Source: an uncultured Alphaproteobacteria bacterium (GTDB taxonomy: Bacteria > Pseudomonadota > Alphaproteobacteria > RF32 > CAG-239). Taken from it: DNA of 64,000 nucleotides. Position 1 is the stretch's first letter; the number at the start of each line of letters is the position of its first letter. Positions 59,579 to 60,472 of this stretch are shown one piece after another. The translations under genes and the position numbers were made by a program. Under the pieces are notes generated by a model. That model saw nothing but the letters and a program-made list of their open reading frames with translations, was not told the DNA's origin and did not search any database. The stretch is taken from positions 11,651 to 75,650 of the forward strand of contig CAKQRZ010000004.1 of NCBI GenBank assembly GCA_934271715.1. The letters run 5' to 3'.

Positions 59579-59756
59579 GTGTGTAAAAAAAACGACCGTT
59601 TAAAAGGGACAGTTTTTAGGCTGTTTTTAGTAATGTAGCAGAGGTTGTTAAGAAATGCAATAACTTTTTATATTTGCGATGTTTTTTGCTGATTTGTGAG
59701 AGTTTTCAGCGTCTTGTTTTGCTGTGTAAAAATAACGGTCGTTTTTTTTACACACT
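59579..59756 (+). repeat. 178-bp hairpin-flanked upstream cassette, copy 3
   Basis: Reverse-complement orientation relative to copies 1 and 2. Abuts the RBS of pilin 59771-60472. Confidence 0.7.
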
Positions 59757-59770
59757 TGAGGAGGAATAAG

Positions 59771-60472
59771 ATGTTTAAGGGTATAGAATTTTTCAGAAGA
59801 AAGAGCTGTGGAACGGAGTTTGGATTGTTTCCCTCAGCTCGCAATGACGTTTGTTCTGCTGGGCGGTCAATGATAGAAATGCTCGGCGTGCTGGCGATTA
59901 TCGCGGTGCTGAGTGTCGGCGGTATCGCCGGATATTCCAAAGCTATGGAGCAGTTTAAGGTTGACAAAGCCGTGAGCGAATACAGCTACTTAATTCAAGG
60001 GCTGTTAGAACACTTAAAAGATTTGCAAAATGTTTCAAAACCCAATGAGGGCGACATTCAATACGGATTAACCAGCGTTGTGGAAGCCGAAAGTTTGGTG
60101 CCGGAAACATGGGAAAAAATATCTAACCACAATTATAATGACCCATACGGGAACTTAATCAGAATTTTCTCCCGTAGCCAAACTTTGGTTATAGATATGT
60201 ATTTGGGCGGTTTCCAATCTGTTGACGGAGGCTCTGCTTCAACTGCATTTTCGCCTAAGTTTTGCAGCGCTTTGATGCAGGATGTGGTTCAACCATTATC
60301 TTCTGTTTTGTACAGCGCTTGGTTTACCTATGGTAATTATTATTATGGCGATAAACATTGTGGCTCAGGTTCAAAATGTATTAGAGATTTGAAACTAAGC
60401 GATATAAATAGGGCATGCAATTACTGCGCTAAACAGTCTGGACGTTTCTGCGGACTAATATTGGAATTTTAA
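59771..60472 (+). CDS. type IV pilin / pseudopilin-like protein with long leader (paralogue 4)
   Basis: MFKGIEFFRRKSCGTEFGLFPSARNDVCSAG|RSMIEMLGVLAIIAVLSVGGIAGYSKAMEQFK. The first 24 nt of the CDS are identical to paralogue 1. Confidence 0.7.
   Translation: MFKGIEFFRRKSCGTEFGLFPSARNDVCSAGRSMIEMLGVLAIIAVLSVGGIAGYSKAMEQFKVDKAVSEYSYLIQGLLEHLKDLQNVSKPNEGDIQYGLTSVVEAESLVPETWEKISNHNYNDPYGNLIRIFSRSQTLVIDMYLGGFQSVDGGSASTAFSPKFCSALMQDVVQPLSSVLYSAWFTYGNYYYGDKHCGSGSKCIRDLKLSDINRACNYCAKQSGRFCGLILEF
59876..60261. repeat. 386-bp perfect inverted repeat, arm A (inside pilin paralogue 4)
   Basis: Verified base by base against the reverse complement of 60743-61128. Confidence 0.9.

Follow-up and report, generated by a model that had tools for sequence, protein, structure and literature searches.

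The 64,000-nucleotide stretch analysed here (referred to as the window), taken from contig CAKQRZ010000004.1 of an uncultured Alphaproteobacteria bacterium, contains three copies of a short cassette in which inverted repeats enclose a promoter-like block, two of them standing directly before genes for long-leader pilin-like proteins. The family to which these cassettes belong very probably consists of true invertons, that is, promoter segments turned around by site-specific inversion, and contains such segments in any case at orthologous loci with two intact sites, where the segment is carried in opposite orientations. Our preferred reading, held with modest confidence, is that promoter segments of approximately 174 bp are present genome-wide in uncultured gut Alphaproteobacteria as invertons, with the window copies switching rarely or not at all. 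That these three copies switch at a biologically relevant rate is rather doubtful; they fall in a subclass that looks ON-locked or rarely switching. No description of the cassette element was found in the literature, and the inverton family is therefore regarded as previously undescribed, but of a known type.

A preliminary description of the window, made from the sequence alone, had reported three cassettes with terminal inverted repeats, and all three (copies 1 to 3, Table 1) lie where it placed them, with repeats that are perfect over 24 bp in each copy (AAGTGTGTAAAAAAAACGACCGTT and AACGGTCGTTTTTTTTACACACTT). The cassettes measure approximately 174-178 bp (n=3), the repeat arms are 133-134 nt apart where this was reported (copies 2 and 3), and the 14-mer core AAAAAACGACCGTT is found at six places in the window, 0.08 occurrences being the chance expectation. 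The internal block that was said to be shared, TGCAATAACTTTTTA..ATTTTTTG, is indeed common to all three copies. Beyond the proximal end, copies 1 and 3 continue, as described, with an identical ribosome-binding site (RBS) segment, GGAGGAATAAG, and with identical ATGTTTAAGGGTATAGAATTTTTC, the first 24 nt being the same in the pilin-like open reading frames (ORFs) 11458-12165 (-) and 59771-60472 (+). The proposed fusion of the cassettes to pilin genes holds for copies 1 and 3 and fails for copy 2, which is flanked by a tRNA-Thr gene and an Acyl_transf_3 gene and has no adjoining pilin gene. Likewise, a stem-loop had been drawn at each end, and it survives at the gene-proximal ends, which are local palindromes (DNA fold of -8.2 to -8.7 kcal/mol, z -3.5 to -4.7); DNA folding of the distal ends shows no hairpin (-0.3 to -3.6 kcal/mol, z -0.25 to +1.4). 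The cassette-linked genes are putatively pilin-like by sub-threshold matches to prepilin/GspG models and by a G/RSMIEMLGVLAII motif.

Closer to the cassette boundaries, each end is a 30-bp site, GTGTAAAAAAAACG-AC-CGTTATTTTTACAC, in which two inverted 14-bp half-sites, identical at 13 of 14 positions, surround a central AC that is the sole asymmetric part; this dinucleotide is oppositely oriented in the two sites of an element. Judged from its sequence, the site would have the crossover layout of serine invertases of the hix/gix/Mpi type, enzymes that cut with a 2-bp stagger at the site centre. An 11-8-11 reading, as for a tyrosine recombinase, is possible but a poorer fit, since the 'spacer' ACGACCGT is a palindrome apart from the two bases in its middle. 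Two classes of element can be told apart by these sites. Both sites are full palindromes in the P/P class, whereas the D class, which includes all three window copies, has a degenerate inner half (4-7/12 positions) at its promoter-distal site.

The extent of the family was gauged by an exact-pattern scan of one genome per species; the element counts are lower bounds. At least 80 loci were recovered in genome contigs, nearly all from metagenome-assembled genomes (MAGs) of uncultured gut Alphaproteobacteria, and a single MAG holds at least 27 loci and at least 22 complete elements; in a second scan the site-RBS junction was present in 49 metagenome contigs. Element length is 171-185 bp, 174 being the mode, almost all copies have an RBS 5-6 nt outside the proximal site and a start codon after it, and the conserved block TGCAATAAC..ATTTTTTG faces the RBS in almost every copy, ATGCAATAAC-N-GATGTTTTTTG being the most conserved interior part across family alignments. 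The association with pilins that had been suggested widens on this scale, the targets being long-leader pilin-like genes and other surface-related ones, namely large Cys-rich secreted 'CFLPD' proteins, a GT87 glycosyltransferase and an acyltransferase. Among viral contigs the one match, within a coding region, is put down to chance and nothing ties the element to phages, and a search of Rfam 15 with window positions 59300-59900 at E <= 1 returned tRNA-Leu only and nothing in the cassette. Several element-bearing MAGs are titled Bacteroidaceae, [Ruminococcus] gnavus or Eubacteriales (L001, L005, L008, L018, L029 and others; the prefix L numbers the loci and contigs compared). These record titles are probably taxonomic mislabels of bins, the loci being near-identical to those of Alphaproteobacteria MAGs.

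A small element with terminal inverted repeats, present at 27 or more loci of one MAG upstream of unrelated gene families, could also be a miniature inverted-repeat transposable element (MITE) that carries an outward promoter and has been inserted before many genes, the alternative that the preliminary description had itself named. The Correia elements of Neisseria are the obvious comparison: like the cassette they are approximately 100-180 bp long, have terminal inverted repeats, occur in many copies and can supply promoters. Correia elements show target duplications and vary in position and orientation; the cassette has neither a target duplication nor such variation. The bases beside its repeats (AAGT/ACTT) belong to the repeat, its distance and orientation to the RBS are fixed in 76 of the 82 scored copies, and its flanks are conserved past both repeats, over approximately 40 nt on the upstream side and as far as the RBS and leader on the downstream side. 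Furthermore, no copy was seen within a gene or at a random intergenic position, no empty site was met among the orthologous loci compared, and no transposase is associated. The MITE reading was rejected for want of target duplication and in view of the fixed placement and conserved flanks, and is almost certainly wrong. Duplication and gene conversion explain how the cassette spread better than MITE transposition does; the 'shared, portable 5' control module' of the earlier account is indeed shared by a subset of the pilin family, and portable in the sense of duplication and gene conversion only.

The inverton reading draws its main strength from P/P loci that are found in both orientations. 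L008 and L071, from two MAGs, have flanks that are identical at 197/200 and 101/107 positions, and their interiors agree at 103 of 109 positions when one of them is inverted versus 66 of 109 otherwise. The same relation is seen in the interiors of L034 and L060 (91/113 inverted versus 65/113 in the same orientation) and at L045 and L058, where a flank identical at 135 of 150 positions adjoins an interior that matches the opposite end (73/80) rather than the same end (51/80) of its counterpart. L032 is in turn inverted relative to its paralogues L058 and L065. The invertible-promoter architecture assigned to the window cassettes in the preliminary description is therefore borne out for the family by the flipped pairs, while for the window copies no inverted state was found. 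All documented flipped loci belong to the P/P class, whose members comprise 7 ON, 4 OFF and 2 elements that lie between divergent paralogous genes for Cys-rich surface proteins. One perfect-site element in such a position (L006 3360-3522; L035 1687-1849) lies between divergent Cys-rich 'CFLPD' genes of 718 and 777 aa. In both MAGs it points at the same gene at present, and inversion would toggle expression between the two paralogues.

A number of observations on orientation, on the elements themselves and on the recombinase weigh against this reading, and most of all against switching in the window. Assemblies report the majority orientation, and minority states are invisible in orientation counts; counted in this way, the D class stands at 69 ON versus 2 OFF and differs from the P/P class (Fisher p = 0.002). 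A D-class OFF junction before an RBS occurs in 0 metagenome contigs against 49 junction-agnostic matches, and the complete elements among those 49 contigs are ON without exception (33/33). When the window loci were retrieved from other assemblies through exact neighbouring proteins, copy 1 was ON in three further assemblies (L092/L153 and L154), the orientation of copy 2 was unchanged in four (L001, L081-L083) and copy 3 was ON in seven others; the pilin-like protein of copy 3 itself had no exact match on record. The degeneracy of the distal inner half-site in the D class points the same way, as does copy 1, in which a distal A-run of 9 faces a proximal T-run of 8, a 1-nt indel between the repeats. 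Promoter activity of the block, too, is suggested by its conservation together with weak consensus matches, promoter scans having given matches at 9/12 positions only (TTGTTA-18-TATATT near the copy 3 block). As for the enzyme, no recombinase adjoins any element in approximately 1 Mb of related loci, covering 8-14 kb around some 80 elements. The only recombinases of the window are two tyrosine recombinases on a strain-specific island, and two small serine recombinases (Resolvase + HTH_7) on a conspecific MAG contig, L077, are, like their homologues, always part of an integrative island that has no cassette sites near it. Two further ideas were dropped. Sigma-54 and sigma-28 readings of the conserved block failed, since the upstream elements are not conserved (checked by eye), and contig ends inside cassettes were set aside as a sign of mixed orientation, the repeats alone being enough to explain them and all ends being ON-type.

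The near-uniform orientation of the D class and its degenerate distal half-site would also be expected of a fixed, non-switching promoter and 5' untranslated region (5'-UTR) module that has spread with pilin-like genes by duplication and gene conversion. The repeats would then be relics of an ancestral inverton, or else paired operator sites of a DNA-binding regulator or a proximal mRNA hairpin that helps to sequester the RBS. This is a substantial possibility, if not a probable one. It is favoured by homology that continues for approximately 40 nt outside the distal repeat and, at the other end, reaches the coding region of the leader, making the repeated unit larger than the segment bounded by the inverted repeats, and by the RNA that the cassette would give. 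In the leader as predicted, the proximal site folds into a stable hairpin that does not vary within the family. RNAalifold on 28 leaders recovered this apical hairpin only and no covarying pairs, since the register of the outer stems differs between leaders. In several subfamilies the variable leader segment just before the proximal site shows complementarity to the region from the Shine-Dalgarno sequence to the start codon (SD-AUG), each using different sequences (AATAAGATG/CTTATT, AACAACGTG/GTTGTT and CGGAGAAG/TTCTCCG); in this pairing (window 59689-59790 and homologous leaders) the recombination-site hairpin forms the tip. A duplex-swap test scored cognate duplexes 2.4 kcal/mol better on average than non-cognate ones, with z < -1.65 for 13 of the 28. 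Such leader pairing may mask the RBS region translationally; with moderate statistics this is a lead, not a finding. For window copies it is weak (z -0.6 and -1.8), and some subfamilies lack it, which speaks against the fixed module in turn.

Comparison of strains also bears on how the cassettes evolve. Strains with identical Psd and neighbouring genes carry different pilin alleles (L084-L090, L153, L154), and divergence of the alleles begins inside the cassette just after GATGTTTTTTG (window 59688 onward); conversely, where a 235-aa pilin is identical in two assemblies, their cassettes differ at approximately 12 positions. It seems that the conserved promoter block serves as a recombination anchor. 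That these allele swaps break inside the promoter block, and not at the sites, is a further point for a fixed module. The module does not account for the recombination of the same sites in P/P members, nor for the distal site, which is kept in nearly all D copies though needless for a fixed promoter.

The remaining argument against a fixed module comes from the two D-class OFF cases, namely L004, before a GT87 gene, and window copy 2, before the acyltransferase gene. In both, an intact gene begins 15-17 nt beyond the site, the block faces the other way, and no room is left for another promoter; at L004 the inverted repeat extends over the RBS. Because these two elements face away from intact, otherwise promoterless genes, they suggest that D-class segments can invert. 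Copy 2 is OFF relative to the acyltransferase gene, before which no space remains for any promoter but that of the cassette; this gene is the candidate target of copy 2 after inversion. The tRNA-Thr gene on the other side has no need of a cassette promoter because a good promoter-like site of its own, TTGCAA-17-TATGTA, lies between it and copy 2 (window 43741-43824, -). The same interval holds GTTATTGC, the reverse of the cassette conserved block, and an inverted RBS-like remnant, TATTCCTTAA.

The cognate invertase that the preliminary description proposed to look for was not found beside any element of the approximately 1 Mb of loci, and one candidate is the smaller of the two tyrosine recombinases of the window. 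A fim-like switch operated by this 196-aa protein (39362-39952), encoded approximately 4 kb from copy 2, would agree with its size and domain content, which are those of FimB/FimE, with a weak phmmer match to FimB and with the 11-8-11 layout into which the site can be read. The gene lies, however, on a 4.7-kb island in tRNA-Thr that is missing from L081 and L083, two otherwise identical loci that keep the cassette, and it has no homologue in the approximately 1 Mb of cassette-bearing loci of other MAGs; in addition, ACGACCGT, palindromic but for its central 2 bp, would better suit a 2-bp serine crossover, to go by the established mechanism. Being island-borne, with the island absent elsewhere and without homologues, the 196-aa enzyme is most unlikely to be the invertase. 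The island itself (approximately 4.7 kb, window 38999-43740) is inserted in tRNA-Thr, the 3' part of which is duplicated at 38999-39059 and 43650-43710, and also carries unannotated ORFs and iteron-like repeats of 29-31 nt. The serine recombinases of L077 are equally similar to Gin and to gamma-delta/Tn3 resolvases. Their island recurs (L077 1100-8000; L145-L152) and encodes a DUF6538 tyrosine integrase of 566-592 aa beside the two small serine recombinases, with variable cargo (radical SAM, Fic, methyltransferases), in related gut Alphaproteobacteria. By analogy with Mpi of B. fragilis, a master invertase acting in trans is our working inference.

Under the preferred inverton reading, two inverted 30-bp sites with GTGTAAAAAAAACG half-sites and a central AC would bound the promoter-like block and the leader, and a trans-acting site-specific recombinase, most likely a small serine invertase to judge from the site layout, would bind both sites, cut at the central dinucleotide and rotate the segment. 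Rotation would connect the promoter with, or disconnect it from, the gene whose RBS begins 5-6 nt outside the site. The window copies would do so rarely, conditionally or never. Copies 1 and 3 are inferred to serve as predominantly ON promoters with a structured 5'-UTR for long-leader pilin-like genes, and copy 2 would be parked in an orientation that leaves the acyltransferase gene without a cassette promoter.

Known invertible systems offer partial parallels. In B. fragilis one serine recombinase, Mpi, inverts 13 regions in trans from a distant gene (PMC4747536; PMC10403206). The Mpi promoters, which belong to capsular polysaccharide loci and others, are like the cassettes in being short segments with inverted repeats of approximately 20-30 bp, present as many scattered copies of the same repeat and serving surface structures. 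The cassettes are unlike them in belonging to Alphaproteobacteria rather than Bacteroidota, in being more numerous within a genome (at least 22-27 copies in one MAG), in targeting pilin-like genes and Cys-rich proteins rather than polysaccharide operons, and in a large pilin-linked subclass that is seen only ON, whereas the Mpi promoters are mixed. The core of the Mpi repeat is reportedly ARACGTWCGT, an ACG-NN-CGT layout like that of AAACGACCGT. The hix site, at 26 bp, binds two Hin subunits per site (PMC3798978). Hin/hix, Gin/gix and other enhancer-dependent serine DNA invertases share with the cassette the inverted half-sites, an A-tract by the centre, an asymmetric 2-bp core and an inverted site pair flanking a promoter. 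The segment turned by Hin is approximately 1 kb long and includes the gene for Hin itself and an enhancer bound by Fis; the cassette, in contrast, is a 174-bp segment without a gene, has no adjacent invertase and serves dozens of targets rather than one. The fimS switch of E. coli, operated by FimB/FimE, is again an invertible promoter before a pilus or fimbrial subunit gene, and asymmetry beside its repeats can bias the direction of switching. It is 314 bp long with 9-bp repeats, occurs at a single locus and has its recombinase genes adjacent, whereas the cassette has no adjacent recombinase and a site that is palindromic around a 2-bp centre.

Table 1. Coordinates of the three cassettes and of associated features in the window (position 1 is the first nucleotide of the 64,000-nucleotide stretch)
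Feature	Position	Strand	Remarks
Cassette copy 1, D class	12179-12361	-	ON for pilin-like gene 11458-12165
Copy 1 proximal site	12183-12212		
Copy 1 distal site	12328-12357		Contains 9-A run
Copy 1 promoter-like block	~12249-12283		
Pilin-like gene, putatively driven by copy 1	11458-12165	-	
Cassette copy 2, D class	43821-44002	-	Promoter-like block points left towards tRNA-Thr
Copy 2 promoter-like block	~43891-43925		
Copy 2 distal site	43969-43998		17 nt from acyltransferase TTG start
tRNA-Thr beside copy 2	43665-43740	-	
Acyl_transf_3 gene	44016-45182	+	PF01757, 1.1e-27
Cassette copy 3, D class	59577-59758	+	Promoter-like block rightward at pilin-like gene, ON
Copy 3 distal recombination-type site	59581-59610	+	Outer half-site GTGTAAAAAAAACG 59581-59594, central AC 59595-59596
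Copy 3 distal inner half-site			Degenerate, 5-6/12 vs consensus
Copy 3 promoter-like block ATGCAATAAC-N-GATGTTTTTTG	59655-59688	+	Putative function; predicted transcription start shortly after GATGTT, ~59684-59690
Copy 3 variable leader segment	59689-59723	+	Partly complementary to SD-AUG region, suggestive (z -1.8)
Copy 3 proximal site GTGTAAAAATAACG-GT-CGTTTTTTTTACAC	59724-59753	+	Near-perfect 30-bp palindrome; hairpin in predicted 5'-UTR, z -3.5
RBS and long-leader pilin-like gene after copy 3	59760-60472	+	RBS GGAGGA 59760-59765; ATG at 59771
Integrase on tRNA-Thr island	42346-43413	-	
Tyrosine recombinase on tRNA-Thr island	39362-39952	+	196 aa, Phage_integrase only, FimB-sized

Two other features of the pilin-like genes were recorded. 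Convergent pilin-like paralogues at 59861-60433 and 60571-61143 form an inverted repeat of 573 nt with 88% identity, its arms only 137 nt apart; of the two genes, one is preceded by the cassette and has a long leader, and its partner has a short leader and lacks the cassette. An expressed copy and a second copy placed in this way could recombine or undergo gene conversion. The long leaders of the cassette-linked genes also contain a palindromic motif, gtcattgcgagc..gcgaagcaatcc (12088-12114 and 59822-59848), which is read as ..LLRVARNDV.. and presumably resembles a dispersed repeat of other bacteria.

Invertible promoters rank among the main sources of variation at the surface of gut bacteria; to our knowledge, nearly all descriptions of them concern cultured Bacteroidota, Enterobacteria and a few others. 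The family described here places, in a prevalent uncultured lineage of the human and animal gut, one of the densest single-site inverton families seen, with at least 22 complete elements in one MAG, and wires it to pilin-like genes, Cys-rich surface proteins and glycan-modifying enzymes. Its flipping and apparently ON-locked classes, one half-site apart, constitute a natural experiment on site recombination which, if the half-site is what decides, would yield a simple sequence rule for predicting live invertons; restoration of TATTTTTACAC at a D-class distal site would then be expected to bring about flipping. More practically, the 30-bp site is a cheap annotation marker in these MAGs for genes that are, or once were, phase-variable, and it accounts for many of their contig breaks. 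A more ambitious picture, which we put forward as speculative and rather unlikely to hold in every part, is that uncultured gut Alphaproteobacteria run a regulon of several dozen serine-invertase-type invertons per ~2-Mb genome on one 30-bp site and in two grades. Perfect-site elements would switch freely at Cys-rich surface proteins and paralogue toggles, and half-site-degenerate ones would be held ON at pilin-like genes, switching rarely or on signal, with a site-tipped 5'-UTR hairpin masking the RBS and the promoter block anchoring allele swaps. If this were true, each pilin gene would be under both DNA-inversion and translational control.

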